A stretch of 64,000 bases of DNA from an uncultured Phycisphaerales bacterium (GTDB lineage Bacteria > Planctomycetota > Phycisphaerae > Tepidisphaerales > Tepidisphaeraceae), in NCBI GenBank assembly GCA_963755915.1, contig CAVWLP010000002.1:4768001-4832000 (forward strand), in the 5' to 3' direction. The position numbers and the translations under genes were made by a program. Shown piece after piece: positions 17,738 through 59,602 of the stretch; the stretch's first letter is position 1, and each line of letters opens with the position of its first letter. The notes beneath the pieces are model-generated. The model was not told the origin of the DNA. It saw nothing but the letters and a program-made list of their open reading frames with translations, and did not search any database.

Positions 17738-19090
<1,353 letters not shown>

Positions 19091-19223: not shown

Positions 19224-19243
19224 TGGACATATGGAGGTTATTT

Positions 19244-21201
19244 ATGTTTGGTCTGCGCAAAAACTCTTCGTCGGCTTCGGTGGCTTGCTGGCCATCCTGC
19301 TGGCTGTCAGCAGCCTGGGGGTAGCCGTCCTGCACCAGCATCGAAGCTGGCTCGATCAGTTCCTCTATGAGAACTGGCGGAGCGTTGAATATGGCCAGCA
19401 CATGATCGACGGCCTGCAGCGCCTCGACGGGATCGCCCAGTCGGTCTCCGGCGCAACGGCGCAACCGACGGATGCGCAACTCGCCGCCGCCGCGGCTGCC
19501 GCCAAACCGGCGATCGACCTCTTCGACGCCAACTGCGTCGCTGAAGACCACAACATCACCCTCCCCACCGAAGACGAAAAAGCCTCCGGCCTGACGCTCC
19601 TCTGGAACGGCTACGCGATCAACACCCACACCGGCGAGAAACTTAACAAGACGACGGATGACACTTACCTCGACTGGTTTAGCAAGCTTATCTCCACCGA
19701 CACGACCGCCGCCCGGCGCACCGCCGCGATTGCCGCGGTCAGACGTCTTTCGCCGCAGCTCAAGGATCGTGCCCAGCAGGTGATCGACCTGAACCTGGAA
19801 AACATGCAGCCGCTGGAAGGTCGGATCAAGGACATGTCGGACCGCGCGACGAGCCTGATCATCCGGCTGGCAGTCATCGGCGTGGGTTTGGCGGTCGTGT
19901 TCATCCTCCTGATGAGCCGGGCGATCTTGCAGCCGCTCCAGACCCTCACGCGGTCGCTGGAAGAAATCTCGCAGGGGAATCTCGATCAAGTCGTGCAGGT
20001 GGGTTCGCATGACGAGCTTCATAAGCTGGCCGAGGCCTTCAACTCGATGGCCGCCAAGCTGCGAGAATTCCGCCGCAGCGACCGGGCGAAACTGATTCGC
20101 GTGCAGCGCACGACCCAACTTGCGGTCGATAGCTTGCCTGATGCCATTGCCGTGGTAAACGCCTCTGGCGTTGTCGAGCTTTCCAACGACACGGCCCAGA
20201 AACTTTTCCAGCTTCAGCCCGAGCAATCGATTCTTCAGATGCGCGATCAGCGCCTGGGCGAGCTTTACCAGGAAGTCGTCCGCACCAGTGCCCCTTCCCA
20301 GCAGAAGGGATACGAATCGGCTATCGAGATTTATGACCAGGGCGGGCAGTTGCGATTCTTCCTGCCGCAGGCCGTGCCGATCATCGACACGCAGCGGCAT
20401 CTTTTGGGCGTTACGCTTGTGCTGGGAGACGTGACCAATCTCCGCCGGCTCGATGAATTGAAGAGCGGCCTCCTCTCGGTCGTCTCCCACGAATTGAAGA
20501 CGCCGCTGACGTCGATTCGCATGGCCACGCACCTGCTGCTTGAAGAGCGGGTGGGCCCGCTCAACTCGAAACAAACCGAGCTGATGATGGCCGCCCGGGA
20601 TGACGCCGACCGGCTCCAGAAAATCATCGAAGATCTTTTGGACATGGGCCGGCTGGAATCGGGCCGGGTGAAGCTCGATCTTCAATCCGAGCCTTCGGAG
20701 CGGCTGGTATCCGATGCGGTGACGCCGCTGGAAACGGCTTTTCACGACAAGGGCGTCGCCCTGCGGGTGGATGTTCCGGTGGAAACACCGGCGGTTTTGG
20801 CCGACCCGGCGCGCATCGGGCACGTTTTCTCGAATCTTTTGACCAATGCCCTGAAGTTCACGCCGCCGGGCGGAAAAGTGCGCATCAGCGCCGAGCCGCT
20901 GGACAAATATGTCCGCTTCATCGTCGAAGACACCGGCATCGGCATCCCGCCCGAATACCTGGGAAGGATATTCGAGCGTTTTTACCGCGTTCCGCGCGAC
21001 AACCAGCCCAGCGGCGCCGGCCTGGGCCTGGCGATCGCCAAGGAAATTGTCGACGCGCATCACGGGAACATTTCCGTGGAAAGCAAGCCGGGGAAGGGGA
21101 GCGTTTTCAGTTTCACCCTCGAGCGGGCGAAGGACCCGCAGGTCAGTTCAGTCAAAGAGGTGAGTTATGAAACCAGCATCAATCCTCGTAACGGACGATG
21201 A
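19244..21201 (+). CDS. Membrane sensor histidine kinase (KinB-like: TM-periplasmic-TM-HAMP-PAS-HisKA-HATPase)
   Basis: SHELKTPL, NLLTNA, DTGIG, GAGLGL. The likely start is MFGLR at 19244, with an indel in the A run at about 19260. Confidence 0.9.
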
Positions 21202-21917
21202 AAGCGGAATCCGCCTGATGCTGCGCACCGCCCTGGAGTCGGACGGTTACGCCGTATCCGAAGCCGCCAACGGGCGCGAAGCACTCGATGCGATCAAAAC
21301 GCATATTCCCGATCTCATTGTCCTGGACCTCAACATGCCAGTGCTCGACGGGATGGCCGTGCTGGAGCAGATGAAGACGCTGGCCACGGGCGTGCGTCCG
21401 CGGGTGATTGTTCTCACCGCATATGGCTCCATTCCCGCGGCGGTGAAGGCGACGCGCCTGGGTGCGCTGGATTTCCTGGAGAAACCGATCACGCCGTCGG
21501 ATCTTCGTCAGGCCGTCCGCAGCGTGCTCGACGAACCCGAGCTCGACACCGCGCCGGAAGTCGTCGTCGATGTGCCGGGCGGTTATGACCTGGTTCTCTC
21601 CCGCATTCGCAAGCTGCTGCGGCTCGCGGAATATGAAACCGCCATGGGGCTGCTCATGAAAGCCGCCGATCGAAAGGACCAGCAGTCGGCGGAATATTTC
21701 AATCTTCTGGGCGTGCTCTACGAAGCGCAAGGCAAATGGAGGCTGGCGCAAGTGCTACGACAAGGCCATGATGGCGGATGAAAACTACGGCCCGGCCCGC
21801 GCGAATCTGCGCCGGCTGCTGGAACTGCGTCGATTTCGGCGCAGCTCGCAGGCCATCTGCCTCGGCGACGAAGCCGAAGACCTCTGGTTCGCCAAGCTGC
21901 CGGAATCCGCAAACTGA
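21167..21917 (+). CDS. Response regulator, REC plus C-terminal TPR-like helices (frameshift near 21750)
   Basis: DDE...DLNMP...TAYG...KP, then AEYFNLLGVLYE; continues in another frame to TGA at 21915-21917. Confidence 0.8.
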
Positions 21918-21923
21918 AGCACG

Positions 21924-22727
21924 ATGTCCAACGCCGGAAAATCCATCCTCGTTGTCGACGATGAGCCGAATGTCCGGCTCATGCTCCGCTCCACGCTTGA
22001 AGCCGACGGGTTCTCCGTCACCGAAGCGTGTGACGGGGAAGAGGCGATCCAATCGGTCGAGCAATTGAGGCCGGCGCTTGTGCTGCTTGACCTCTGGATG
22101 CACCGAGGCGACGGGATGCAGGTATTGGAATACTTGAATCGCAAGGCCCCGGAAGATCACCCGCGGGTGATCGTGTTGACCGCGCATGGCCGGGTTCCGG
22201 TCGTCGTGAAGGCGATGCGCCTGGGGGCTTCAGATTTTCTGGAAAAGCCGACGACGCCGGAAGATCTGCGGCTCAGTGTTTCGGCGGCCCTGGAAGACGC
22301 GCCCGAAAAGAACCCCCAGCCGGTCGAGCAAACCCCGTCGCGCACGGCGGCAAAGCTCGGCCCCGTTCTGGCGGGCATCCGCAGCGCCGTCTGGAACCAG
22401 GATATCCGGCTCACCGAGCGCATCCTCACCGCGCTTTTCCGCAAGGCGTGGAGCGACCCCGCTTATTTCAATCTTCTCGGCGCCGTCTTCGAAGCCGAGG
22501 GAAACCGCGGCGCGGCCAAGACCTTCTACCAGAAATCCGCCGACTCCCGCGCCGAATGCGAAGCGGCCAAACAAAATTTGCAGCGATTAAATGAATTGAA
22601 TGCAGACCCCGAACATCCCGCCGACGCAGTGCTCGGCGGGCAGAACGAATTTCTCAAGATGATCTGTGACGAGCACCGTAACCACGGCTCGCAAAGCAAC
22701 CACCCAGATGAAGGAGCCAATTTATGA
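21924..22727 (+). CDS. Second REC-TPR response regulator paralog
   Basis: DDEP...DLWM...TAHG...KP, then PAYFNLLGAVFE; no DNA-binding domain recognised. Confidence 0.85.
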   Translation: MSNAGKSILVVDDEPNVRLMLRSTLEADGFSVTEACDGEEAIQSVEQLRPALVLLDLWMHRGDGMQVLEYLNRKAPEDHPRVIVLTAHGRVPVVVKAMRLGASDFLEKPTTPEDLRLSVSAALEDAPEKNPQPVEQTPSRTAAKLGPVLAGIRSAVWNQDIRLTERILTALFRKAWSDPAYFNLLGAVFEAEGNRGAAKTFYQKSADSRAECEAAKQNLQRLNELNADPEHPADAVLGGQNEFLKMICDEHRNHGSQSNHPDEGANL

Positions 22728-22807
22728 TGGATTGTGTTTATCTCGGCGCAATGATCGCGTTCTTCGCCATCTGCGTCCTTTACGCCCACGCGTTTGGAAA
22801 GATTTGA
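22724..22807 (+). CDS. Small single-TM peptide (27 aa) upstream of kdpF
   Basis: MMDCVYLGAMIAFFAICVLYAHAFGKI; AAGGAG RBS; ATGA overlap with the previous stop. Confidence 0.75.
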   Translation: MMDCVYLGAMIAFFAICVLYAHAFGKI

Positions 22808-22825: not shown

Positions 22826-22912
22826 ATGGCTGAAAACATTATTGTTGGAATCGCATCCGTTGGATTGATGGTTTACCTGTTCTGGACCCTCATCCGTCCC
22901 GAGCATTTCTAA
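22826..22912 (+). CDS. kdpF: K+-transporting ATPase subunit F
   Basis: MAENIIVGIASVGLMVYLFWTLIRPEHF has the YL-x3-L-x2-PE-x-F signature; AGGAG RBS. Confidence 0.9.
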   Translation: MAENIIVGIASVGLMVYLFWTLIRPEHF

Positions 22913-22932: not shown

Positions 22933-24663
22933 ATGTCAACGTCCGGCTGGATACAACTCGCGGTTTATGTCGTGGTGCTCGTGGCGGTCACGAAGCCCAT
23001 GGGCATCTACCTTTTGCAGGTGCTCGACCCCGAGTTCGCCGGCGGCACGTTCCTCGATCGCGCTCTTGGGCCGGTCGAGCGCCTCATCTACGCCATCCTG
23101 CGCGTTGATCCCAAGCGCGAGCAGACCTGGAAGCAGTATGGGATCGCCATGCTCATCTTCAGCGTCGTCACGGCATTGATGACCTACACGATTCTGCGCC
23201 TCCAGAACCATCTGCCGCTGAATCCTCAGAGTTTCCCGGCCGTCGCCGACCATCTCGCTTTCAATACCTCGGCGAGTTTCACGACCAATACGAATTGGCA
23301 GAGCTACGGCGGCGAATCGACGATGTCGTATCTGTCGCAGATGCTGGCGCTGGCGAGCCACAACTTTTTCTCGGCTGCCGTGGGCATCGCCGTGGCGGCG
23401 GCTGTTATTCGGGGGATCGCTCGCAACAAGATCGGCACTCTCGGCAACTTCTGGCGCGATCTGGTCCGGCTTCACCTTTACCTGCTGCTGCCCATCTGCG
23501 TTCTTTACGCATCGTTCCTGATGAGCCAGGGAATCATTCAAAACTTCCGGCATTACTCAGTGCTCAATACGTTCGATCAAAGCGCGGCGGCGCAGCAGAC
23601 CATCGGCCAGGGACCAGTCGCTTCGCAGATCGCGATCAAAATGCTTGGCACCAACGGCGGCGGATTCTTCAACGCCAATGCAGCTCATCCTTTTGAGAAT
23701 TCAACGCCCCTTTGCAATTTCATTCAGATTCTGTCGATCTTCGTGATCCCCAGCGGTTTGACCTACTACCTCGGCCGGATGGTCAAAGACCAGGGCCACG
23801 GGTGGACCGTCTGGGCGGCGATGTTTGCCCTGTTCATCGCCGGGGTTGTGATCGCCTGGCCGGCGGAAGCCGCGGGCAATCCGCGTTTCACCTCACTGGG
23901 AGTCGATTCGGCAGCTGGGAATATGGAAGGCAAGGAAGTCCGCTTCGGAATTTTCGACTCGGCACTCTTTGCAACGATTACAACAGACGCCTCCTGCGGC
24001 GCCGTTAACTGCATGCACGACAGCATGACTCCGCTCGGAGGGCTGGTGCCGCTGTTCAATATTCAGACGGGCGAAGTCATCTTCGGCGGCGTTGGAGCGG
24101 GAATGTATGGCATGCTTATCTTTGTCATCCTCGCCATCTTCATCGCCGGATTGATGGTCGGACGCACGCCGGAATATCTCGGCAAGAAAATCGAAGGCTT
24201 CGACGTGAAATGCGCCGTATTGGCGATCCTTGCGCCCGCGGTCTGCATCCTTGGCTTCACCGCTTGGGCGTCGCAGAAAGACTGGGGAGTCGCCGGCACG
24301 AACAACAACGGCCCGCACGGCTTCAGTGAAATTCTCTACGCCTATACTTCCTGCGCCGGCAACAACGGCTCCGCCTTCGCCGGCATCAATACCAATACTC
24401 CCAATTACAACGACACATTGGCCATCGACATGCTCCTGGGCCGATTCTTCATGATCATCCCAATGCTCGCGATGGGTGGCCACCTCGCCACCAAGCGAAT
24501 CGCTCCGCAAAGCGCGGGCAGCTTCCCCGTCTCCGGAACCACTTTCACGCTCCTGCTCATCGGCACCGTCGTCATCGTCGGCGCGCTCACGTTTCTGCCG
24601 GCGCTGGCCATGGGGCCGATCGTTGAGCACTTTCAGATGTGGGGATCAAGGATGACCTTTTAA
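22933..24663 (+). CDS. kdpA: K+-transporting ATPase subunit A, canonical
   Basis: Filter motifs NTNWQ, TNGGG, SCGAV, NNGSA; GRTPEYLGKK. Confidence 0.96.
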   Translation: MSTSGWIQLAVYVVVLVAVTKPMGIYLLQVLDPEFAGGTFLDRALGPVERLIYAILRVDPKREQTWKQYGIAMLIFSVVTALMTYTILRLQNHLPLNPQSFPAVADHLAFNTSASFTTNTNWQSYGGESTMSYLSQMLALASHNFFSAAVGIAVAAAVIRGIARNKIGTLGNFWRDLVRLHLYLLLPICVLYASFLMSQGIIQNFRHYSVLNTFDQSAAAQQTIGQGPVASQIAIKMLGTNGGGFFNANAAHPFENSTPLCNFIQILSIFVIPSGLTYYLGRMVKDQGHGWTVWAAMFALFIAGVVIAWPAEAAGNPRFTSLGVDSAAGNMEGKEVRFGIFDSALFATITTDASCGAVNCMHDSMTPLGGLVPLFNIQTGEVIFGGVGAGMYGMLIFVILAIFIAGLMVGRTPEYLGKKIEGFDVKCAVLAILAPAVCILGFTAWASQKDWGVAGTNNNGPHGFSEILYAYTSCAGNNGSAFAGINTNTPNYNDTLAIDMLLGRFFMIIPMLAMGGHLATKRIAPQSAGSFPVSGTTFTLLLIGTVVIVGALTFLPALAMGPIVEHFQMWGSRMTF

Positions 24664-24696
24664 ACAAGGTTTTTGAGGGTTGGAAGGTATATCACT

Positions 24697-26538
24697 ATGA
24701 GTTACATGTCAGGTTCAGGTTGGGTTCAGTTGCTCGTCTTCTGCATCGGCTTGCTCCTTATCACCAAGCCGATGGGCCTCTATCTCCTGCGCGTCCTCGA
24801 CCCCGAAGTCGAGGGGGGCGTGGGACCGCTCGAGAAAATCCTCGGGCCGATTGAGAGGTTCACCTATTTTATCGCCCGAGTCGATCCCAAGAAGCAGCAG
24901 AACTGGAAGCAGTATCTCCTGTCCGTGCTCATGCTGGGATTCGTGACCATGGCACTCAGCTATGGGCTCTACCGGATTCAGGACATGCTGCCGCTTAAGC
25001 AGAACATGGCGAATCTCGCCCAGTCGGTCGACAAGTCCGGCGTGATAAATGGCGGGGGAAAAGTCCCGGGCATCATCGCCTTTATCCAAGGCGCCAGTTT
25101 CGTAACCAACACCGACTGGCAGAGCTACGAGCCGGAGCAGATGTTCACCTACTTCTCGCAGACGGTCTCGACCGCCCTGCACTTCTTCTTCTCCTCGGAG
25201 GTGGGCATCGCTGCCGCCGCGGTGGTGGTTCGATCGATTCGCCGCCGGGAGACGCGCGATCTGGGGAACTTCTGGGTGGATCTGACTCGCCAGACGCTTT
25301 ACCTCTTCCTGCCGATCTGCGTCGTGTTTGCGACGCTGGATATGTGGCAGGGAATTCCGATGAATTTTAACGCCTACACAAAGGCGACGGCGGTGGATCA
25401 ATCCGGCGCATCGGCCGGGCAACCCACGGTTCAAGGCATATTGCAGGGACCGATGGCTTCTTATTGTGCCCCGAAAGTTCTGGGCCTTAACGGCCCCGGA
25501 TTTACCGGCGCCGACTGCGCCCATCCGTTCGAAAATCCCACTCCGCTGGCCGAATTCCTTCAGTGGATGCTCTTTTTCTCCATCCCCTCCGGCATCGTCT
25601 ACTACTATGGCCGGATGATCGGCAACTCGCTTCACGCGTGGAATATCTGGCTGATCATGTTCATCATGCTGATGGGCACCCTCTTCGTCACCTGGTATTA
25701 CGAAGCCCAACCCAACCCCAACTTCGTGGCGATGGGCATCGACCCTCACAACGCCAACATGGAAGGCAAGGAAGTCCGCTTCGGAATCTATAACTCCGCG
25801 GCCTGGGCCAACGATGTCACCTGCACGGCCGAAGGCGCCAACAACTGTCAGCACGACTCGTTGACCCCCATGGCCGATTTCATGCTCCTCTTCAACATGC
25901 ACATGGGTGAACTTGTCTTCGGTGGCATCGGAACGGGCCTGTACACCATGATCATTTTCACGCTCGTGTCGGTCTTCCTCGCCGGGCTGATGATCGGCCG
26001 AACGCCGGAATACCTTGGCAAGAAGGTGGATGCCTACGGCGTGAAATGCGCGTGTCTCTACATGCTGGTGATGGTGATCGACGCCATCGGATTCACCGCC
26101 TGGGGCGCCGCCGCGACTTGGGGCAATGGAGCCGTCGGCAATAACGGGCCGCACGGTTTCAGCGAGATTTTCTACGCTTACAGCTCCGGAATGGCGAATA
26201 ACGGCACCGCCATGGGCGGCTACGGCTATTCGCCCACGGGCACCAATGCCGCCGGGCAGACGGTGTACACCAACACCATGTTCAACTGGACGCAGACTTA
26301 CTGCATGCTGATCGGCCGCTACTGGGAGCTGATCCCGGTTCTCGCCCTGGCCGGTGCGCTGGCGATTAAAAAACCGGCGCCTGCATCCGCGGGAAGCTTC
26401 CCCGTCGTCGGACCTACGTTTGTCTTACTTATCATCGCGGTCATCGTCATCGTCGGGGCGCTCAACTTCCTCCCCGGCCTGGCAATGGGACCGCTGCTGG
26501 AGCATTTCATCATGCGTGGCGGTGGAGTCCTGTACTGA
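24697..26538 (+). CDS. kdpA: Divergent second KdpA paralog with an altered selectivity filter
   Basis: KdpA scaffold is kept (HPFENP, NMEGKEVRFG, GRTPEYLGKK, GPHGFSE), but the filter motifs read NTDWQ, LNGPG, AEGAN, NNGTA. Confidence 0.9.
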   Translation: MSYMSGSGWVQLLVFCIGLLLITKPMGLYLLRVLDPEVEGGVGPLEKILGPIERFTYFIARVDPKKQQNWKQYLLSVLMLGFVTMALSYGLYRIQDMLPLKQNMANLAQSVDKSGVINGGGKVPGIIAFIQGASFVTNTDWQSYEPEQMFTYFSQTVSTALHFFFSSEVGIAAAAVVVRSIRRRETRDLGNFWVDLTRQTLYLFLPICVVFATLDMWQGIPMNFNAYTKATAVDQSGASAGQPTVQGILQGPMASYCAPKVLGLNGPGFTGADCAHPFENPTPLAEFLQWMLFFSIPSGIVYYYGRMIGNSLHAWNIWLIMFIMLMGTLFVTWYYEAQPNPNFVAMGIDPHNANMEGKEVRFGIYNSAAWANDVTCTAEGANNCQHDSLTPMADFMLLFNMHMGELVFGGIGTGLYTMIIFTLVSVFLAGLMIGRTPEYLGKKVDAYGVKCACLYMLVMVIDAIGFTAWGAAATWGNGAVGNNGPHGFSEIFYAYSSGMANNGTAMGGYGYSPTGTNAAGQTVYTNTMFNWTQTYCMLIGRYWELIPVLALAGALAIKKPAPASAGSFPVVGPTFVLLIIAVIVIVGALNFLPGLAMGPLLEHFIMRGGGVLY

Positions 26539-26583
26539 AGCTAATTTTGAAAACCAATTTGAGAGAGATTGAGGTTTAATCCT

Positions 26584-28674
26584 ATGGCTGCCAAAGCACG
26601 ACCCCTGTTCGATCCCGAAATCGTCATGCCGGCGATCTGGGAGAGCGTTAAGAAGCTCAACCCCGTTCACATGGTCAAGAACCCCGTCATGTTCGTGACC
26701 GAAGTTGGCGCGGTTCCTGACCACGCTAGATCTGTTCTTCACCAAGGACTCCCTCTGCGTTCGTCGCCCAGATTTCGCTGTGGCTGTGGTTCACGGTTCT
26801 CTTCGCCAACTTCGCCGAGGCCATGGCCGAAGGCCGCGGCAAGGCCCAGGCGGATGCCCTGCGCAAGAGCCGCACCAAAACCGTCGGCCGCAAGCTCATG
26901 CCTGACGGCTCGATTCAGACGGTCCCCGCGGAATCGTTCCGCAAGGGAGATATCTTCGTGGTGACGGCCAACGAGCTGATCGCCGCCGACGGCGAGATCA
27001 TCGAAGGCGCGGCCAGCGTTAACGAATCGGCCATCACCGGTGAATCCGCCCCGGTCATCCGCGAAGCCGGCGGCGACCGCTCGGCCGTTACCGGCGGCAC
27101 GACTGTCCTCTCGGATGAGATCAAGGTCCGCGTCACCGCCAACCCCGGCGAGAGCTTCATGGACCGCATGATCGAGCTGATCGAAGGCGCCAAACGTCAG
27201 AAGACGCCCAACGAAATCGCCCTTTCGATTCTGCTCTCGGCCCTGACGATCATCTTCCTGGCCGTCTGCATCACCATGCTCCCCTTCGCGATTTACACGC
27301 AGACGTATCTCAGCGCCGATGTCTACGCAGAAGGTGAGCCTGGCATCTTCTCCGTGACGGTGCTGATCGCCCTGCTGGTCTGCCTGATTCCGACAACGAT
27401 CGGCGGACTGCTTTCCGCCATCGGCATCGCCGGCATCGACCGAATGGTGCAGCACAACGTGCTGGCCATGAGCGGTAAAGCCGTTGAAGCCGCCGGCGAC
27501 GTCGACGTGCTTCTGCTGGATAAAACCGGCACGATCACCCTCGGCAATCGCGCCGCAGCCGAATTCATTCCCGCGCCGGGAGTGACGGAGACGGAATTAG
27601 CCGATGCCGCCCAGCTTTCCTCGCTGGCGGATGAAACGCCCGAGGGCCGCAGCATCGTCGTGCTGGCCAAGGAAAAGTACGGCATCCGCGGCCGGGAAAT
27701 CGGCGATATGCCCCATGCCGAATTCGTCCCCTTCACCGCCCAGACGCGCATGAGCGGCCTGAACTTGAATGGCGAAATGATCCGCAAAGGTGCTGCCGAC
27801 AGCGTTCGCAAATTCGTCCTGGCCGGTGGCGGCCGCCTTCCCCGCCGAGATCGATCGAACCGGTGGAAACGATCAGCCGCGCCGGCGGCACGCCTCTCGT
27901 CGTCGCCAGCACCACCAAAGTTTATGGAACGTCATTTATCTCAAGGACATCGTCAAGAGCGGCCTGCCCGACCGCTTCCAGCGCTTCCGGGCCATGGGCA
28001 TCAAGACGGTCATGATCACCGGCGACAACCCGCTGACCGCCGCCGCCATCGCCAAGGAAGCCGGCGTCGATGACTTCCTCGCCCAGGCCACGCCCGAAGA
28101 CAAGCTGGCCCTGCTCAAGAAAGAGCAGGCGGCGGGCCATCTCGTCGCCATGACCGGCGACGGCACCAACGACGCCCCGGCGCTGGCCCAGGCCGACGTC
28201 GGCGTCGCCATGAACACCGGCACCCAGGCCGCCAAGGAGGCCGGCAACATGGTCGATCTCGACAGCAACCCCACGAAGCTGATCGAAGTCGTCGAGATCG
28301 GCAAGCAGCTGCTGATGACCCGCGGCGCGCTGACGACCTTCAGCGTCGCCAACGACGTGGCGAAATATTTCGCCATCATCCCCGCGATGCTCATGGGCGC
28401 GTTCCCGCAGGTCGCCCCGCTGAACATCATGAAGCTGCACACGCCGCACAGCGCCATTCTCAGCGCCGTTATCTTTAACGCGATCATCATCATTCTGCTG
28501 ATTCCGCTGGCGCTGCGGGGCGTGAAATTCCGTCCGGCGCCGGCCGCCGTCATTCTGCGGCGCAATCTGCTGATCTACGGCTTCGGCGGCATCATTGCCC
28601 CGTTCCCCGGAATCAGGCTCATCGACCTTTTCATCAACGCCATCCACCTGCCCGGCTTGGCGATGATGCACTGA
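26584..28674 (+). CDS. kdpB: K+-transporting ATPase subunit B (apparent frameshifts near 26710-26770 and 27830-27930)
   Basis: [39 protein letters not shown]. Confidence 0.95.
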
Positions 28675-28699: not shown

Positions 28700-29630
28700 A
28701 TGAAAAGCGAAAAAAACACCGGCCACACAATGGTCATCCACCGTGAGAACGACGTCCCCGGCGGCTCCCTGCTCGGCGCACATCTGGGCCTCCATCGCCG
28801 TCACCATCGTCCTGGGCATTATCTGCTGCGGCATCTATCCCCTGCTCATCTGGGGAATCGGCCAGGCGGCATTCCGCTGGCAGGCGGACGGCTCCCTCCT
28901 GGACAAGTACGGGAACCACACGACGGACGATACCCAGGCCGTCGGATCGGCGCTGATCGGCCAGAATTTCTCCGCCGCTCAATACTTCCATCCCCGGCCC
29001 AGCGCGGCCGGCGCGGGCTATGATGCCACCAGTTCAGGCGGGACCAACCTCGGCCCCCTCAGCGATAAGCTTATCAACGGCCTCAATAACGCCGCCACCA
29101 CGCAGCCCACTACCCAGCCCGAATCAATCACCTACGACGGCGTCCGCTTCCGCACCATCCACTACGCCTACACCAACGGCCTTTCCTTCAAGCTCTATAA
29201 CGTCGCGGCCGACGGCACGAAAACGGAAGTCCCGCTCAAGAACTACCAGAACAAGGACGGCACCCTCAACCAAATGGCGATGGTGGACGCGTTCCCCCAC
29301 AACGGCGCCACGGCCGGCCTGATCGCCGGCGATTTCAAAGACGCCAGCGGCAACGACGTGCTGATCCCCGGCGACGCCGTCACCGCCTCAGGTTCCGGCC
29401 TCGACCCCCACATCAGCCCGGCCAACGCCGCCCTGCAGGTTAATCGCGTCGCTGCGGCCAGGAAAATGTCGCCCGACCAAGTGAAAGAGCTCGTCGCCAA
29501 GTACACCGACGGGCCGGATCTGGGAATTCTGGGCGATCCGGGCGTGAATGTTCTGCGGCTGAATATCGCATTGGATAATCAAAATGACCCTCACCCTAAC
29601 CCTCTCCCGGAGTACCGGGAGAGGGGATAA
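28700..29630 (+). CDS. kdpC: K+-transporting ATPase subunit C with a large internal insertion (frameshift near 28775; true stop may be TGA 29585-29587)
   Basis: YPL, GSALIGQNF, YFHPRPSA, SGGTNLGP, DAVTASGSGLDPHIS, VNVLRLNIALD. Confidence 0.92.
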
Positions 29631-29804
29631 GAGGGCGTAAGAGGGAGCGGTTCAAAGAGTCACTTGGGTGCGTGGGCGTCTTGATCAACGTCCAAACCGC
29701 CGCATTCGGGTGCAAACAGGCACTGCGGGGCAACGGCGCTAGTTGCCACACGCCGACCCCGCGGTACCGTTTTAACTTAGAAAGGCAAAATCCGCCCGTG
29801 GCGA

Positions 29805-31497
29805 ATGGCTGATGACAGAGCACAATCTTTCCTCCAGATGATCCGCACGCTCCCAGCGGGGGCGGCTCAAGGTCTATCTCGGTTACGGCCCCGGCGTCGG
29901 AAAAACTTTCCGCATGCTGCAGGAAGCGCACCGCCTTAAAAACGAAGGGATCGACGTCGTCGTTGGCCTCGTCGAAACCCACGGCCGCGCCGAAACCGCC
30001 AGCCTCCTCGAAGGCCTTGAAGTCATCCCCCGCCGAAAGGTCGAATATCACCAAATCGTCGTTGAGGAAATGGATGTGGATGCCGTCATCGCCCGACACC
30101 CCACGGTCGCCATCGTCGATGAGCTCGCCCATACCAACGTCCCCGGCAGCAAAAACACCAAGCGATACCAGGACGTCCAGGACATCGTCGCCGCAGGAAT
30201 ACACGTGATTTCTGCCCTCAACATCCAGCATCTCGAAAGCCTCTACAACATGGTGGAGAACCTCATCGGCGTAAAAGTGCGCGAGCGCCTGCCCGATTCC
30301 GTCCTCGCCGAGGCCGACCAGATCATCAACATCGACCTCTCCGCCGAAGACCTCCAGCAGCGCCTCAAGGAGGGAAAGATCTATCCCATGGAGCGCGTTC
30401 AGTCCTCCCTGGAAAATTTCTTCACCAGCGGCAACCTCGAGCATCTGCGCGAACTGGCCCTGCGCGAACTGGCATCGCAGATCGACTTCAAGCGCCGCGA
30501 AAGCGCCGGCAGCAGCAGGTCGCCGCCCCCACCGACGCCTCGCCCGAGCAGATCATGGTCTGCCTCTCCTCGCGCGGCCCCAACAGCGCCCGCCTCCTCC
30601 GCATCGGATCGCGCCTCGCCGGCCGTCTCAATCGCAACTGGTACGCGGTCTACGTGCAAACGCCTTCCGAAGACCCCACCGTCATCGACGCTGTCACCCA
30701 GCGCCTCCTCGCCGAAACCCAGGACCTCGCCAAGCAGCTTGGCGCAACCGTCTTCCAGTTCAAGGGACAGAACATCGCCGACACTATCCTCCGTTTCGCC
30801 TCGGAATACGGCGTCGGCCAGATCGTCATCGGACGCCCCCATCCCATCCCCTGGTGGAAGCGACTCATCGGCCACCACAGCGTCGCCGAGGATCTCATCC
30901 ACGCGCCAAGGCCGTGAGCATCATCGTCGTCGACGCCGAAAGCGAAGAGCGCCGCAGCACCGAATTCGTCGAGCCCTCCACCCAGGCGACGATCACGTCG
31001 GTCCGCCCCGCCGGCACGCTTAGCCGCCTCCTCACGCCGCAGCGGATCGTCATCTGGGACGATCCCGTGCCGCGGCAGGAAGTCCGCCAGCGCCTCGCCG
31101 AGGCCGTCGCCGCGGCAATCCGAGCCTCGGCATCGACGAGATTGTTGAAAAAACTCGCCGAGCGCGAGCAACTGGGCTCCATCTTCCTCAATGAAGGCAT
31201 CGCCCTGCCGCACGCCCGCATGGAAAAGCTCGACAACCCGGAGGTCGCCCTCGGCCTGACGCGTTCCGGCCTGCTCGACGTTGTCACCGAGCAACCCATC
31301 TCAGCCGTGTTCCTGTTGCTTTCCCCCGCCGCCAAGGCCAACGTCCATCTGCAGCTTCTCGCCAAGGCCGGCCGCGCCCTCCAGAACCGCGAGCTGCGCG
31401 CGCACTGGCCCGCGTTTCCACTCCCGAGGAAGCGATGGAGGCCATCCAGGATTTTGAAGCCGCCTTCAGCGGCCAGACTGTCGTCGCCTCCAAATAA
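29805..31497 (+). CDS. kdpD: Soluble KdpD N-terminal domain + Usp domain + PTS EIIA-like domain, no TM or kinase (several indels)
   Basis: Read across frames: RGRLKVYLGYGPGVGKT, ETHGR, VDELAHTN, KRYQDV, LRELAL; then Usp-like MVCLSS...IVIGRP; then LAEREQLGS...GIALPHAR...HLQLLA. Confidence 0.82.
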
Positions 31498-31499
31498 CC

Positions 31500-31877
31500 A
31501 TGCGCGACGAACCTCCCAGCACCGCCTTCCTTACGGCCCTGGAGGCCATCGCCTCGCGCATCAACGCCGCGACCTTCGCCTTCGACAACCCCGACGGCTC
31601 CCGCCGCGGCTTCGTCCAGTTTCTCGCCAGCCCCGATGACAGCCTCAAGATTCACCGCCTCTGGGTCCTGGAGCCCGGAATCGGTCACGGTTCGCAGATC
31701 CTGACCTCAATCTGCGATCTCGCCGACCAGCACGGCGTGAAAATCGTCCTCAAGACCGTCCCCTTCGGCGGCAAGCCCTACCCCATGCCGCGCGAGTCCC
31801 TCGCCGCCTGGTACCGCCGTCACGGCTTCGAAGGTCCCCGCTGGAAACTCGCGCGAAAACCCGGCGCGCTTCGCTGA
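31500..31877 (+). CDS. Small GNAT-like protein
   Basis: IHRLWV-x-EPGIGHGSQIL and LAAWYRRHGF resemble acetyl-CoA-binding motifs. Confidence 0.6.
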   Translation: MRDEPPSTAFLTALEAIASRINAATFAFDNPDGSRRGFVQFLASPDDSLKIHRLWVLEPGIGHGSQILTSICDLADQHGVKIVLKTVPFGGKPYPMPRESLAAWYRRHGFEGPRWKLARKPGALR

Positions 31878-31965
31878 CTCGCCCCTTGTGTTGACTCGCC
31901 TTGCATCAAGCCTCCCCGCTGACAATACTGTTCCGCGCCTGTTTTTGCGGGCGGAACATTTTTTG

Positions 31966-33695
31966 ATGAGCCAAAGCGTCGCAACAGCCGACACCTCTCG
32001 AAAAAGAAACAAGCTCGGCGCCGCCGGGATCTTCGAATGGTCGCTCGCCGCCGCGCTCACCGTTGCCTGGCTCGCCTTCCACATCCGCTTTTTCCTTCAC
32101 GCCGGCGCACTGTGGCGCGATGAGGTCAACAGCGTCGATCTGGCGACCAGCCCCACCATCTCCGACATCGCCGCCAACCTTCAGCATGATTCCTTCCCCA
32201 TCCTCTGGTTCGTCTTCATCAGATTCTGGATTCGCTGCGGAATTGGAACGTCGGACCCGGGCCTGCGCGTCTCCGGCCTCCTCACCGGCCTGGGCATGCT
32301 CGCCGCAATCTGGCTTAACGCCCGGCGCTTCCGATATCGCACGCCCATTGCAACCCTCACCCTCCTCGGCTTCGCCAGCGCGATGGTCATCTATGGCGAC
32401 TCCATCCGCGCCTACGGCCCGGGTGTTCTGCTCGAATTGCTCACGCTCGGCCTCATCTGGGACGTCGCCACTCGCCCCAGCCCCTTGCGCATTTTCGCCG
32501 CCCTCGTCATCTCACTCATGGCCGTCCAAACCCTCTTCTACAACAGCGTCATCCTCTTCGCCCTCTGCAGCGGCGGCATCCTCGTCTGCCTCGGACATCG
32601 CCATTTCAGGCGGGCCGCGATCATCCTCGCCATCGGCATCGTCTGCACCATCTCCATGCTCCCCTACCGCGTGCTGACGGTCCGCTCCGCCAGCTTCCGC
32701 GCCATGCTTATCCACTCCCCCACCATGAGCTGGCTCGTTTCCAAGTTCGTCGAATCCGTCGGCTACGACAAAGACAATCCCGCCGCCGGCAGCCCCCACA
32801 ACGCCTGGATGTGGGGCATCGCGATCGTCCTTTCCCTTTTGGTCGCCCTGACCGCCTCCCGTCGCTTTCGCGGCTCCACGCCGCGGGGCCAGCCTCTTCC
32901 CCGCGACATCGATTTCCGAAAAGACGTCCTGATCTATCATCTCACCGTCCTCTTCCTCGGCATCGGCGGCTATTGGATCTTTCTCCACGCCCTCGCCTAC
33001 ACCATGCAGCCCTGGTATTACCTCGCCCTTCTCGCCCTCATCGCCTCCTGCATCGACGGCCTTTTCAGCTCGCTCCCATCCACCGCGGTCCGTGTATCCT
33101 TTTGCCTCGCGGCAATCTGCTTTTGCGCTTCCAACTTCAGACCCGTCTGGCACGACGCGGGCCTGCGAAAAACCAGCATCGACTTCATCGCCGCCGATCT
33201 CCCTGAGTTTCAGCGCCCGGAAACCTCATCATCATCAGCCCGTGGTTCTATGCGATCACCTTTCAGCGCTACTATCACGGCCCCACCGAATATCTCACCA
33301 TCCCACCCATGGATTTCATCAAGTACCAGAGATACGAGCAGATCATCCCCGCCATGGAAAACACTCACGCCATGGATCCGGTCCTGAAGCGCATCGCCGC
33401 TACGCTCAGCAGCGGACACGACGTGATTCTCCTCGGCGATTTCGAATACCCCGATTCAGCTGCCACCCCTCCAAAACTGCTCCCCCCAGCGCCGAACGCC
33501 CAAAGTGGCTGGGAAGACAGCCCATACTATTTCTCCTGGAGGGACCAGATCACATTTTTTCTGCAATCCCACACCGTCGGCTGGAAGCGCATCGATGCCC
33601 CGGTCAAGGGAATCAGCGGTTACGAACATCCAAACGTCTTCGCCCTGTGGGGATTCGTCAAACAGCCTCTCAACCCCAAACCGGCCGCGAAATAA
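31966..33695 (+). CDS. Multi-pass membrane protein, GT-C (ArnT/PMT-like) glycosyltransferase candidate (frameshift near 33205)
   Basis: LWRDE loop motif, HDSFP, RAYG, many TM helices and a soluble C-terminal domain. Confidence 0.6.
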
Positions 33696-33698
33696 TTT

Positions 33699-35976
33699 CT
33701 ACTGCCTCGGATCCCCATACAAAATCCCCCGCCCGTGCGTCCCCACATAAACCCGCCCATAAATCCGTGGATCGCCGGTGATCTGCAAAATCAGTCCCCA
33801 TTGATGCTGATCATCATTGATCCTCACCCAGCTCTTCCCGCGATCATCACTGCGAAAAATTCCCGGCTGCCCGTTCAAATCCCCCACCACATAAATCGCC
33901 GGATAGTCTGCCCCCGGCGCAGATTTCCCAAACCCAAACGCATGAATATTCACCGGCCCTCCCACCCCCGTAAACCCCGACGGGCCGACCGGATGACACA
34001 GCCCATCATGCGACGCCAGCCACAAATCCCCTTCCCGATCCGGCGCGGGATAAAGCTGGTCCTGCCCCCCGCGCATCGCCCCGATCCTCTCCGGGCGCGG
34101 GCGGCGCAGATAAAAACATCGCCGTCGAAAATTTCTCTCCCCCATCCACGCTCCAAAAATATTCCCCGCCCGCCACGTCCACCCCATAAAACTTCATCGG
34201 ATTCACGGGATCCGCCACCGGCCGAACCCCCTCCTCAAGTCCCGCGCACCGCTTCCACGAATCCCCCCGATCCGTCGTCAAAAATGATCCGGCCCCCGGC
34301 AACGTCCAGATCCACCTCGTCCCATCCGCGTTCACCGCCACAGACCCATCCCGGCTGTTAAACCCCGGCCCCTTTTTCGCCTGCGTCCACGTCTTTCCCT
34401 GATCCAGCGAATACGCCAGCCCCGGCCCCCCTCGATTCTGACCTCCCGCCAGGTCTCCGCTCCGCACCAGCAGCATCGGGTTCCCCGTTGCCATCGCCAG
34501 GCCCGTCGTGTTCCCAAACCGCGGATTCGTATTCACATCCGCCGGAGGGTTGTCCACGTCCCAATGCTCAAAACTGCCATAATCCCCAATCGCCGAGATC
34601 AGGTGCGGACCAACCTCCGGGCTGATCAGATGCAGCGCCACCGTCTCCTCGATCCCTTTACTAAATACGCTCCAGTGCGTCGGCTTCCCCTCATCGGCAT
34701 TGGTCAGATCAAACGTCTCCCACCCGCCATATCCCGTCGTGAACATTGCATGATTCGGATCGCACGGATCGATCTGAATATCCAGCAGCCAATGGATCGG
34801 CGTATGATGCACATACGGCGCCCCCGAATAATCGTACACGCCCCCACCCGCATAAATCCCCCGCCACGATTTCCCCCCATCCGTGCTGCGATAGAGCTCC
34901 TCGCCCCCCGGATGCCCAAACGTGCTGGCGATAATCGCATCCGGATTGGCCGTATCCACCGCGACCGCCCCATACCCAAACGCCTTCCCATTGATCGGGT
35001 CCGGTTTCTCCGGCGTAATATCCGTCCAGACGCCGCTGCCCGTGTCAAACTTCCATATCGCCCCATTGGTCATCCGCGACGGTCCCGGCGCTGTCCCATA
35101 CGAAAAATAAATCACGCCGTTCGAAGCCATCACCCCATGCGAAGGCCGCAACGAAGTCGGCTCCCCCGCAACCACATCCCACGTCTGCCCATGATCCGTA
35201 CTGCGAAAAACACTCGCCTGCCTGACCAGCGACGCCCCCACATAAATCGTCCCACTTCCCTTCCCCGCCGACCCGCTGCGCGGATCGAAAATCTCAAATA
35301 CAATCCCTGAAGACCGCGGCGAAAAACCAAACCGCCGCCCCATCGGCCGCGTCGAAGGTCTCTCCACTACCTGCGGAAAACTATCCACCTTCTCCCACGT
35401 CACTCCGCGATCCAGGCTGCGCCACAGCCCATTCAGTCGAGAGCCAAAATAAATCACGTTCCCATCATTCGGATCGACTTGAAGTCTCTCCCCATTGCCC
35501 CTCCCATCCTCATTGCCCCCCATCTTGAACGGCAAATCCGTCCGCTGAAAAGTCCGCCCCCGATCATCCGACCGCAAAATCGCCGCGTTGGGCGACGTCG
35601 CATTCGTATACATCCCACACGCCAGATAAACCCGATCCGGATCCGATGGATCAATCGCAATGCTCTCCACCCCCATCAGATTCGTATCCTTATAGGAAAC
35701 CCAATCCAGTATCGGCTGCCAGATTTTCTTGGCATCATCCCACCGATACGCCCCCCCGATATCTGTCCGGCAATACCTCACGCCCTTCGCCGACGGATGA
35801 AACACAATCCCATCCACAAACCCCCCGCCGACGATCTGCACACTTTTCCAAACATACGGCCCCGTTGCCTCCGGCGCCTGCACCGACTGCGCCGTCCGAT
35901 TCCCACTCCCCACGCACCCGCACAAAATCGGAACCACCAGAAGCCACAGCCCACGCGACGATTTAAATGTTTTCAT
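33699..35976 (-). CDS. GH74 xyloglucanase-like beta-propeller lipoprotein (frameshift near 34070)
   Basis: GGGFVDG, RTDIGGAYRW, GGNEDGRGNGERL, GIEET, IGD, BNR repeats, YVGTHGRGILYG. Confidence 0.9.
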
Positions 35977-36130
35977 GGATTCCCAAACCATACCGAGAAA
36001 CCCCCTCATCAGCAAGCGTTTTCTGCATGCGAATTCTCTGCATTTACCCCCGCCCCCGGTACTCCGGTGGAGGCGGGGGGAGGGGGTTCGTCAGATGCCC
36101 TATCGATCAATCATCATTGCTTGAGCGCGA

Positions 36131-58251: not shown

Positions 58252-59529
58252 ATGATCGCCGCGGCGTGGGTGGCGCCGATGACCGGTCCGCTGATCCGCG
58301 ATGGCGCGATTGTTTTCAGCGCCGGTCGCGTGGAGGCGGTAGGAACGGCCGGTGGACTTCGAGAAAAATATCCCGATGCGGAAATTGTCGAGCTGGGCGA
58401 TGCCATCGTTCTGCCCGGGCTGGTGAATGCCCATACGCATCTGGAGCTAAGCCATATTCGTTGCGGGGATTCATCCGGGGGCCACCTGGCCGACTGGATT
58501 GTCAAAAGCGTAATGCCGCAAGCGACGAAGGATCCCGTCGAGATTGCGGTGCAGGAAGGCGTTAGGCAATGCCTGAGATTTGGGGTGACCAGTGTCGGGG
58601 ACATCACCAAGCAATGCGTCCCAACAAGAGCCGCCCTTCGCGACGGCCCGCTCCGCGTCGTCAGCTTTGGAGAAATCCAGGCAATGGCAAAACGCCGCGG
58701 ACTCCTGGAAGAGCGTTTCGCCAAGGCGGCCGACACATCGAGTGAATCCCAGTGGCTCCGCGTCGGAATCTCCCCCCACGCCCCCTACACGGTGGAAGCC
58801 CAGGGCTACCGCCGCTGTCTCGCCTTCGCGAAATCCCAGAATCGTCCCCTGGCGACGCATCTTGCCGAGACCGCCGAAGAAAACGAGTTTCTCACAGCGC
58901 ACACCGGACCATTCCGAAAACTCTGGGAAACCGGCGTAAATGCCTGGAGCGACGACGTCCCGCAATTTTCCGGCGGCCCAATCCGCTTCGCGCGCGAAGC
59001 TGGCCTGCTTGACTATCCCTCCCTTCTCGCTCACGTGAATTATTGCGATGACGGGGAAATGGATATTCTCACCGCCGGCAAAGCCAGCGTCGTCTTTTGC
59101 CCCCGCACCCACGAATTCTTCGGCCATCCCCCCCACCGCTGGCGCGAGATGCTGAAACGCGGCATCAACGTCGCCGTGGGAACCGACAGTTGTGCCAGTT
59201 CGCCGGACTTAAATATTGTCGACGATCTTCGCCTGCTGCATCGGCTATATCCGGAGGAACCCGCGATGTTATTGTGGGAAATGGCCACGGTCCGCGCGGC
59301 GCGGGCGATCAGGATGAATGATACCCCCTCTTCCCCCTCTCCCGGTACTCCGGGAGAGGGTTGGGGTGAGGGCCGTGGAGACATTTCCGTAGGGATAATT
59401 CGCCCGGCCGCGGCAGCAGATTTCGCCGTATTCAAATGCTCGAGTGATGATCCCCTGATGGAGATTCTGGAAACCGATGTCCTTCCCGCTTCGATCTGGA
59501 TTGAAGGGAAAAGGACACAGCCGGCGTAG
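58252..59529 (+). CDS. Amidohydrolase (MTA/SAH or aminodeoxyfutalosine deaminase-like)
   Basis: PGLVNAHTHLEL, SPHAPYT, HLAET-x-EE, AHVN, GTDS. Confidence 0.87.
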   Translation: MIAAAWVAPMTGPLIRDGAIVFSAGRVEAVGTAGGLREKYPDAEIVELGDAIVLPGLVNAHTHLELSHIRCGDSSGGHLADWIVKSVMPQATKDPVEIAVQEGVRQCLRFGVTSVGDITKQCVPTRAALRDGPLRVVSFGEIQAMAKRRGLLEERFAKAADTSSESQWLRVGISPHAPYTVEAQGYRRCLAFAKSQNRPLATHLAETAEENEFLTAHTGPFRKLWETGVNAWSDDVPQFSGGPIRFAREAGLLDYPSLLAHVNYCDDGEMDILTAGKASVVFCPRTHEFFGHPPHRWREMLKRGINVAVGTDSCASSPDLNIVDDLRLLHRLYPEEPAMLLWEMATVRAARAIRMNDTPSSPSPGTPGEGWGEGRGDISVGIIRPAAAADFAVFKCSSDDPLMEILETDVLPASIWIEGKRTQPA

Positions 59530-59602
59530 CGTTATCTCTTTCGCTGCCCTCACCCCAACCCTCTCCCGGAGTACCGGGCGAGGGGGCAAGAGGCGAATGC
59601 GC

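Follow-up and report, generated by a model that had tools for sequence, protein, structure and literature searches.

The Kdp complex is the textbook combination of a channel-like protein with a P-type ATPase, and its extreme selectivity for K+ is attributed to the filter in its channel-like subunit, KdpA, which has been studied through a few mutants of the Escherichia coli protein. The available portions of PMC12629597 describe S3 as the main K+ site of this filter, built from eight backbone carbonyls, and S4 as receiving two side-chain oxygen ligands from below, with E370 and R493 forming a charge pair in the vestibule. The same portions report that charge at the filter entrance tunes the Km, with Q116R lowering the affinity and Q116E behaving much like the wild type, and that the G232D variant passes NH4+ and Rb+, KdpB being relatively promiscuous and selectivity being placed in the KdpA filter. 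The subject here is a second kdpA gene, kdpA2, which directly follows a canonical one, kdpA1, in a stretch of 64,000 nucleotides (the window) from an uncultured Phycisphaerales bacterium (assembly GCA_963755915.1, contig CAVWLP010000002.1, positions 4,768,001 to 4,832,000).

KdpA2 is a conserved subfamily of KdpA under purifying selection. From sequence comparisons, it is judged moderately probable that the product of kdpA2 is functional and provides the Kdp P-type ATPase with an alternative channel-like subunit, which would work with the same KdpB, KdpC and KdpF as KdpA1 and would carry K+ with retuned properties. A full-text literature search returned no description of a second or tandem kdpA, or of the KdpA2 filter, although supplementary family surveys may exist, and the subfamily is apparently undescribed. 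It is also invisible in current annotation, because KdpA1 and KdpA2 both pass the NCBIfam equivalog model and are named KdpA.

Two KdpA proteins with different filters

The two genes, and the filter positions of the second, are as follows (substitutions in E. coli numbering).

22933–24663, + strand: kdpA1, canonical channel-like subunit, 576 amino acids, filter NTNWQ/TNGGG/SCGAV/NNGSA
24697–26538, + strand: kdpA2, variant channel-like subunit, 613 amino acids from ATG, identified by profile, alignment, model and short-read contigs
25108–25122, + strand: KdpA2 filter loop 1, NTDWQ (N114D)
25486–25500, + strand: KdpA2 filter loop 2, LNGPG (T230L, G233P)
25513–25515, + strand: KdpA2 D273 (N239D), behind filter loop 2
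25828–25842, + strand: KdpA2 filter loop 3, AEGAN (S343A, C344E, V347N)
26197–26211, + strand: KdpA2 filter loop 4, NNGTA (S469T)

An alternative kdpA2 start, a TTG at 24673, would give 621 amino acids. Open reading frames (ORFs), profiles and a search of the whole source genome (G000) bear out a preliminary description of this DNA in its count of two uninterrupted tandem kdpA genes with one kdpB and one kdpC; these two genes are the only KdpA matches in the genome, which holds a single kdpB locus and a single kdpC.

KdpA1 and KdpA2 are 49% identical to one another. Both match the Pfam family KdpA (PF03814) from end to end, with 755 bits for KdpA1 and 564.1 bits for KdpA2 (cut-off 22.6), the latter covering profile positions 2–548 of 548, and both exceed the cut-off of 387.7 for the NCBIfam kdpA equivalog TIGR00680 (720 and 493.1 bits). 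Alignment to E. coli KdpA showed that the four filter motifs of KdpA1 are those of the E. coli protein, and that KdpA2 departs from the E. coli-type filter at seven of 20 positions: N114D, T230L, G233P, S343A, C344E, V347N and S469T. The segments GELVFGG, GRTPEYLGKK and GRY are found in KdpA2, again as first described. The motif letters given in the preliminary description were right for both proteins, but its statement that all four motifs had been rewritten was too strong, given the seven changed positions, the invariance of the filter glycines and of Q116, E370 and R493, and the frequency of N114D elsewhere in the family.

Taken together with N239D, the clade-specific changes add three acidic residues (D114, D239 and E344) and a proline (G233P), and remove two hydroxyls (T230L and S343A). 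The T-V-G-Y-G filter of K+ channels suggests by analogy, and independently of PMC12629597, that T230 and S343 would be the side-chain ligands of S4 and that D114, D239 and N347 would lie at the outer mouth. An AlphaFold2 model of KdpA2 had a predicted local distance difference test score (pLDDT) of 81 and a predicted template modelling (pTM) score of 0.84, and it adopts the KdpA fold of four membrane-pore-membrane repeats with terminal helices, with a Foldseek template modelling (TM) score of 0.94 to 7nnp_A, 6hra_A and 5mrw_A and root-mean-square deviations of 2.6–3.1 Å, of which 2.6 Å applies to 7nnp_A and 6hra_A.

Conservation of the KdpA2 filter

Relatives of KdpA2 were listed as 120 clusters at 64–100% identity, of which the 110 near full length were used for motif counts. 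All 110 (64–90% identical) keep NTDWQ, LNGPG and AEGAN together with a fourth motif that is NNGTA in 89 and NNGTS in 21. The residues Q116, G232, G345, G468, E370, F386 and R493 are invariant throughout the same set, and position 400 is arginine in 95 sequences and lysine in 15. For KdpA1-type full-length relatives, all four E. coli motifs were present in 116 of 118. The ratio of nonsynonymous to synonymous substitution rates (dN/dS) was 0.10–0.23 for kdpA2 (15 pairs), as compared with 0.09–0.25 for kdpA1 in the same genomes; many of these pairs have a dS of about 1 and are partly saturated, and the pairs at dS 0.35–0.82 give 0.11–0.20. The preliminary description had proposed examining whether the NTD/LNGP/AEG filter marks a conserved clade with dN/dS below 1, and on both counts this is what was found.

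Comparison of the KdpA1 and KdpA2 clades identified 37 positions that are fixed differently (at least 95% in each clade), and 15 of these lie no more than five residues from a filter motif, against 4.0 expected (hypergeometric p = 8e-7). When only columns conserved in both clades were considered, 15 of 41 near the filter had diverged versus 22 of 146 elsewhere (Fisher p = 0.003).

Short-read contigs from public soil runs (X1–X4, labelled 'soil metagenome') match both kdpA1 and kdpA2 with no differences and no gaps (for example over 24490–25668 and 25755–26825), so the unusual filter of KdpA2 is not an assembly error. Runs X5–X11, with peat, bog and soil labels, had small shares of the stretch and were left aside as evidence of habitat, and no RNA run was among those listed as containing it. 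The isolate labels SPRUCE, palsa and MFD in KdpA2 records presumably also refer to peat and soil surveys. A case for KdpA2 being a decaying copy, or the product of an error-prone assembly, could be made from the state of the source genome (three contigs, 81% complete) and from the indel errors found next to it in kdpB, kdpC and kdpD; the probability of this reading is nevertheless negligible, as the reading frame is uninterrupted, the short-read contigs are identical, intact orthologues occur in short-read assemblies, the motifs are present in 110 of 110 relatives and the dN/dS is like that of kdpA1. Decay, which the preliminary description had set against its own proposal, was thus rejected, as was the idea of a pseudogene.

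Family-wide, 105 full-length KdpA representatives were aligned. In a library clustered at 50% identity, the KdpA2 clade is one full-length representative plus fragments, and beyond it the nearest protein has 45% identity. Only two of the 105 other representatives combine all four E. coli motifs, so the exact E. coli filter does not define the family. In a phylum-wide sample of 401 genomes, the source genome included, no KdpA2-type gene was found outside the source genome, the best other match being 53% identical; the members of the KdpA2 clade came solely from close relatives and contig collections.

These data bear on the possibility that KdpA2 assembles with KdpB and KdpC but has a filter that picks another cation, such as NH4+, Rb+ or Cs+. 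Neither LNGPG nor E344 occurs in any of the 105 representatives (D344 occurs in one), and the three subfamily-specific acidic residues and the proline, in or next to the filter, are invariant in the clade. In the accessible text of PMC12629597, moreover, the E. coli G232D change leads to coupled transport of NH4+ and Rb+ through a relatively promiscuous KdpB. A canonical KdpA is also kept in every genome checked, which fits a second function rather than redundancy. However, G232, G345, G468 and the backbone positions of the main S3 site are unchanged in KdpA2, N114D is common elsewhere in the KdpA family (exactly NTDWQ in 11 of the 105 representatives), and positions 230, 343, 344 and 347 vary widely among them. 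Selection of a different cation is therefore considered unlikely, and K+ transport with retuned properties remains the preferred account of the KdpA2 filter.

KdpA2 with and without KdpA1

The surroundings of kdpA2 were surveyed by rule-based counts in 25 loci from species-representative genomes and 54 loci from metagenome contigs, two sets that overlap and are not independent (locus L147 is identical to the G404 locus).

Upstream of kdpA2, genome loci (25): kdpA1 in 11; no kdpA, with at least 1.5 kb available, in 11; kdpC in 1; not judgeable in 2
Upstream of kdpA2, metagenome loci (54): kdpA1 in 17; no kdpA, with at least 1.5 kb available, in 22; kdpC in 2; not judgeable in 13
Downstream of kdpA2, genome loci (25): kdpB in 21; kdpC in 1; nothing found in 1; not judgeable in 2
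Downstream of kdpA2, metagenome loci (54): kdpB in 32; kdpC in 3; nothing found in 1; not judgeable in 18

An adjacent kdpA1 was lacking in 33 of the 64 loci with judgeable upstream DNA, and kdpB stood 3' of kdpA2 in 53 of 59 judgeable loci, with kdpC there in four of 59. In the genome locus with nothing found downstream (L086), kdpA2 and kdpB are frameshift-fragmented and were missed by the counting rule. The operons with kdpA2 as their only kdpA (A2-only) have their own small ORF (sORF1) and kdpF directly before kdpA2, followed by kdpB and kdpC. Judged by gene order, KdpA2 is able to serve as the sole KdpA of an operon.

Close relatives differ in this respect. A genome of the same genus as the source genome (G409) has the layout kdpA1-kdpB-kdpC-kdpD, and G404, G408 and G410 have kdpA1-kdpA2-kdpB-kdpC-kdpD. 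The loci L110, L112 and L132 carry the same regulator, sORF1 and kdpF, followed by kdpA2-kdpB-kdpC-kdpD, with a KdpB 94% identical to that of G404 and with no A1-like remnant. A third layout, kdpA1-kdpB-kdpC-kdpA2-kdpC', was found in L077, L116, L128 and L129, and two of these loci, L077 and L129, have after kdpC' a third kdpA, different in type, and then kdpD; the L077 cluster thus contains three kdpA types, two kdpC and one kdpB. These comparisons, together with the conserved clade, lend support to the exchangeable-subunit idea of the preliminary description, since relatives with kdpA1 only, with both genes and with kdpA2 only all exist.

Other layouts with two or three kdpA genes were seen in the same family (L066 in G420:C4, L067 in G410:C25, L077 and L152). 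One consists of kdpA1-kdpB-kdpC, a second kdpA with a canonical filter and then kdpD. Another has a kdpA of 700 amino acids (NTNLQ, without the E370 loop), kdpB, kdpC, a regulator and a kdpA with the filter TTTWQ/TNGGG/ATGST/NNGQA, and a KdpA paralogue with this latter filter occurs in relatives of the source genome.

It could be that KdpA1 and KdpA2 enter one larger complex, with two channel subunits per KdpB or as an A1–A2 pair, so that KdpA2 needs KdpA1. The two genes are separated by 33 bases, terminator-like signals do not exceed the chance level, one kdpB and one kdpC serve two kdpA genes in the genome, and other two-kdpA layouts recur in the same family. Such a complex is nonetheless improbable in view of the 33 of 64 judgeable loci without an adjacent kdpA1 and of the close relatives in which this operon occurs in an A2-only or an A1-only form; in the E. 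coli structure, as described in the accessible part of PMC10654040, there is also one KdpA per KdpB.

The A2-only operons bear equally on the suggestion, made in the preliminary description, that KdpA2 may be a sensor. As a nonconducting sensor or regulator, it would titrate KdpB and KdpC or gate KdpA1, and the filter side chains unlike those of any tested KdpA, with low AlphaFold2 confidence at loops 2 and 3, could be taken in that sense. Complete sORF-kdpF-kdpA2-kdpB-kdpC operons without kdpA1 would, however, then encode pumps without a channel, and no variation is seen at the filter glycines or at Q116, E370, F386 and R493; a role of this kind is very unlikely. A conducting subunit that can take the place of KdpA1 is the reading carried forward here.

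Proposed origin and transfer of kdpA2

A careful maximum-likelihood tree was built from 41 KdpA sequences. The KdpA2 clade (15 rows), supported at 100/100, sat on a long stem (0.51 changes per site) and adjoined the KdpA1 clade of the Tepidisphaeraceae inside a group of 29 rows (support 97/96). This topology fits a history in which a kdpA of the Tepidisphaeraceae type was duplicated and KdpA2 then changed in a burst before becoming conserved. The second kdpA of G420, which has a canonical filter and lies in the order kdpA1-kdpB-kdpC-kdpAx, was considered as an intermediate. It was placed sister to the KdpA2 clade (support 93/91, not starred); of the 37 diverged sites, 26 agree with A1 and three with A2, and the idea is unsupported.

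A single group (100/100) unites the seven KdpA2 sequences whose record titles name Planctomycetia, Pirellulales, Thermoguttaceae or Planctomycetaceae, and this group is nested in Tepidisphaeraceae-titled KdpA2 with intervening branches supported at 98/92, 100/99 and 98/96. An approximately unbiased test rejected a tree in which the Tepidisphaeraceae-labelled KdpA2 sequences were held together (p = 4.7e-5), a result weakened by the fact that the group was named after a quick tree had been seen. In a quick tree of KdpB, the eight KdpB of A2-only operons formed one group (Shimodaira–Hasegawa-like approximate likelihood ratio support 100) within the KdpB clade of the Tepidisphaeraceae. From these trees, the kdpA2-kdpB-kdpC block with its small genes appears to have moved between planctomycete classes, from Tepidisphaeraceae to Planctomycetia.

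The kdp locus and its assembly

The kdp genes and the regulators upstream of them all lie on the + strand of the window. Besides the two kdpA genes, the features of the locus are the following.

17738–19090, + strand: sigma-54-type activator
19231–21201, + strand: HAMP-PAS histidine kinase
21167–21781, + strand: receiver-domain protein
21924–22727, + strand: response-regulator receiver protein directly 5' of the operon, a position kept in relatives
22724–22807, + strand: sORF1, small hydrophobic ORF of 27 amino acids, conserved, 5' of kdpF, of no known family
22826–22912, + strand: kdpF, single-helix subunit of 28 amino acids; TIGR02115 28.4 bits (cut-off 26.85), PF09604 25.8 bits (cut-off 21.2)
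26584–28674, + strand: kdpB, P-type ATPase subunit, in three frames as assembled, the only one in the genome
28743–29630, + strand: kdpC, long form of 295 amino acids as called, containing an insert; matched by PF02669 and TIGR00681, in two stretches
29588–29645, + strand: palindromic dispersed repeat, supplying the last codons and stop of the kdpC ORF; at least 43 genome matches
29860–31482, + strand: kdpD-like gene (KdpD N-terminal sensor, Usp and PTS EIIA-2 domains), split by three frame changes

The gap between kdpA2 and kdpB is 45 bases. The kdpF gene is conserved in the operons of relatives, and an ORF of 26–30 amino acids resembling sORF1 precedes it in operons of the A1A2BC, A1BC and A2BC types in both planctomycete classes. 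No match to sORF1 was found in Pfam or NCBIfam at E of 1 or below; it may represent a fifth, small subunit of the pumps. A scan returned seven terminator-like sites against 7.4 expected from shuffled sequence, no excess over chance, and no sigma-70-like promoter sites. For a sigma-54 consensus, 17 matches were found where 28.6 were expected, with none upstream of the operon, and Rfam had no matches across the window. Downstream of the kdp locus, at 30000–36000, the guanine–cytosine skew is strongly negative (−0.2 to −0.37) and there are many proline- and serine-rich out-of-frame ORFs.

As assembled, kdpB occupies three frames (26584–26712, 26757–27857 and 27832–28671) and the kdpD-like gene four. 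Comparison with near-identical short-read contigs identified single-base indels in the window at 26712, 26758, 28780, 29847, 30505, 30901, 31113 and 31144, that is, at least eight in 4.5 kb of kdpB, kdpC and kdpD versus none in 3.6 kb of kdpA1 and kdpA2. When bases 26712 and 26758 are omitted, as in the contigs, residues 1–424 of KdpB are open and 88.9% identical to the intact KdpB of a relative, whereas the same stretch as assembled contains 15 stops; the first kdpB break is an assembly artefact. In the kdpD-like gene the contigs have one base added at 30505 and one at 30901, and the breaks near these two positions are assembly indels. The contigs have one base fewer at 29847 and at 28780, and the latter indel probably affects the 5' end of kdpC. 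The remaining breaks in kdpB and kdpD are also treated as assembly indels, because relatives assembled from short reads have an intact KdpB of 693 amino acids and a KdpD-like protein of 552–569 amino acids. The assembly appears error-prone, and breaks in other genes of the source genome call for checking before they are taken as signs of pseudogenes.

Of 27 planctomycete KdpB rows, in which every operon class is represented, 25 agree with E. coli at the key residues (TGES162, L228, F232, P264-T265-T266, DKTGT307-311, D583 and K586). One other row carries L228F, and two deviate solely at the last three key positions, which is tentatively attributed to frameshifts in long-read assemblies. F232, D583 and K586 are functional residues of KdpB, with roles as given in the accessible part of PMC8385062. 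Adaptation of KdpB to KdpA2 was rejected, as only two alignment positions are fixed in A2-only KdpB and absent from A1-only KdpB, and neither is a known ion-site or tunnel residue. The long KdpC was likewise rejected as a KdpA2-specific partner, since operons encode KdpC proteins of 279–456 amino acids whether or not they contain kdpA2; the tree of KdpC has poor resolution.

Contig depth in all four runs was 49–167 at 28066–28352, as against single-digit values elsewhere; kdpB is at its most conserved in this stretch, which encodes the P-domain, and the peak probably reflects contigs from many other organisms. A further depth spike, with loose ends, at 29588–29635 coincides with the palindromic repeat at the 3' end of kdpC. 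This repeat, of about 45–58 bases, had 190 first-look candidates in addition to the genome matches given above, and two more copies lie in the window near 59322–59593.

No kinase domain was found in the kdpD-like gene (564 amino acids when intact, in L062:4126-5820, − strand), which is therefore not a KdpD histidine kinase. In E. coli, EIIA-Ntr (PtsN) binds KdpD, and the kdpD-like gene looks like a natural fusion of these two partners.

Discussion

The most likely interpretation of these data is that sORF1, kdpF, kdpA1, kdpA2, kdpB and kdpC would be read as one transcript, and that two kinds of pump would be built on a common KdpB, KdpC and KdpF, one with the E. coli-type filter of KdpA1 and the other with the subfamily filter of KdpA2. 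It is from gene context that we infer the assembly of KdpA2 into the pump. KdpA2 keeps the backbone scaffold of its filter (G232, G345, G468 and Q116) and the vestibule charges E370 and R493, with the flanking side chains changed, and the ion would most likely pass from this filter through the intersubunit tunnel to an unchanged site in KdpB. Because the KdpB ion site is unchanged and the filter residues named here are kept, K+ or a K+-sized monovalent cation is favoured, and Na+ and divalent cations are disfavoured. The ion is thus most readily taken to be K+, and KdpA2 would differ in affinity, in pH dependence or in discrimination against competing cations; a change of ion is possible but not indicated.

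A bolder version of the altered-ion idea is that a Kdp ATPase with KdpA2 would be a pump for a cation other than K+, most plausibly NH4+, with the substrate set by the swap of the channel subunit and the A2-only operons providing ATP-driven uptake of it. An operon with both kdpA genes would in that case specify two pumps of different substrate around one KdpB, KdpC and KdpF. On present sequence evidence, this is doubtful.

Several observations weigh against KdpA2 as an alternative K+ subunit. Co-transcription of both kdpA genes offers no obvious condition-specific use for either. E344 and D239 are charges absent from E. coli KdpA and could change the ion, not just the affinity, and the proline at 233 could deform the filter, for which the modelled loop geometry has low confidence: the pLDDT is below 50 for residues 267–278 and 382–384, in loops 2 and 3 of the filter. 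No near-identical contig settles the second break in kdpB (about 27832–27857), and one X2 contig skips 27831–27930. Finally, all five genomes with an A2-only operon that were checked carry one or two further kdpA loci elsewhere, so KdpA2 has never been seen as the only KdpA of a cell.

As a natural version of the filter that is conserved clade-wide, KdpA2 offers a ready-made test of the roles of the positions at which it differs. The survey also shows gain, exchange and loss of the channel subunit on a constant set of KdpB, KdpC and KdpF. The layouts concerned are A1 only, A1 with A2, A2 only, and A1-B-C with A2 and a second kdpC after it, a modularity absent from the one-of-each picture drawn from E. 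coli.

Comparison with known systems

The closest described protein is E. coli KdpA (PDB 5MRW, 6HRA and 7NNP). KdpA2 aligns with it over its full length (E = 1e-103) and shares its fold (TM 0.94), its four pore loops with their central glycines, Q116, the E370/R493 pair and GRTPEYLGKK, and the kdpA2 gene, like its E. coli counterpart, sits with kdpF, kdpB and kdpC. In contrast, KdpA2 is only 36% identical to the E. coli protein, differs from it at the seven filter positions and at N239D behind loop 2, contains three inserts of 16, 8 and 13 residues (109–124, 238–245 and 512–524), and shares its operon with a canonical KdpA.

The E. coli mutants Q116R and G232D provide a second comparison. According to the accessible text of PMC12629597, they alter the same filter, with a changed affinity in both and a changed selectivity in G232D, and coupling to KdpB is kept. 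KdpA2, however, retains Q116 and G232, and its changes lie elsewhere, are natural and are fixed in the clade. None of its substitutions is among the filter mutants described in the available portions of PMC12629597, PMC8385062 and PMC10654040.

More distantly, TrkG/TrkH and KtrB/HKT, which belong to the K+ transporter superfamily that also includes KdpA, have the four-pore-loop fold in common with KdpA2 (Foldseek TM 0.54–0.70). They differ from it in sequence (10–14% identity), in having RCK-type partners and no P-type ATPase, and in not being arranged in tandem before one ATPase gene. Among these transporters there is a precedent, described in the accessible part of PMC9898762, for a cell with two channel-subunit paralogues that differ in their transport properties.

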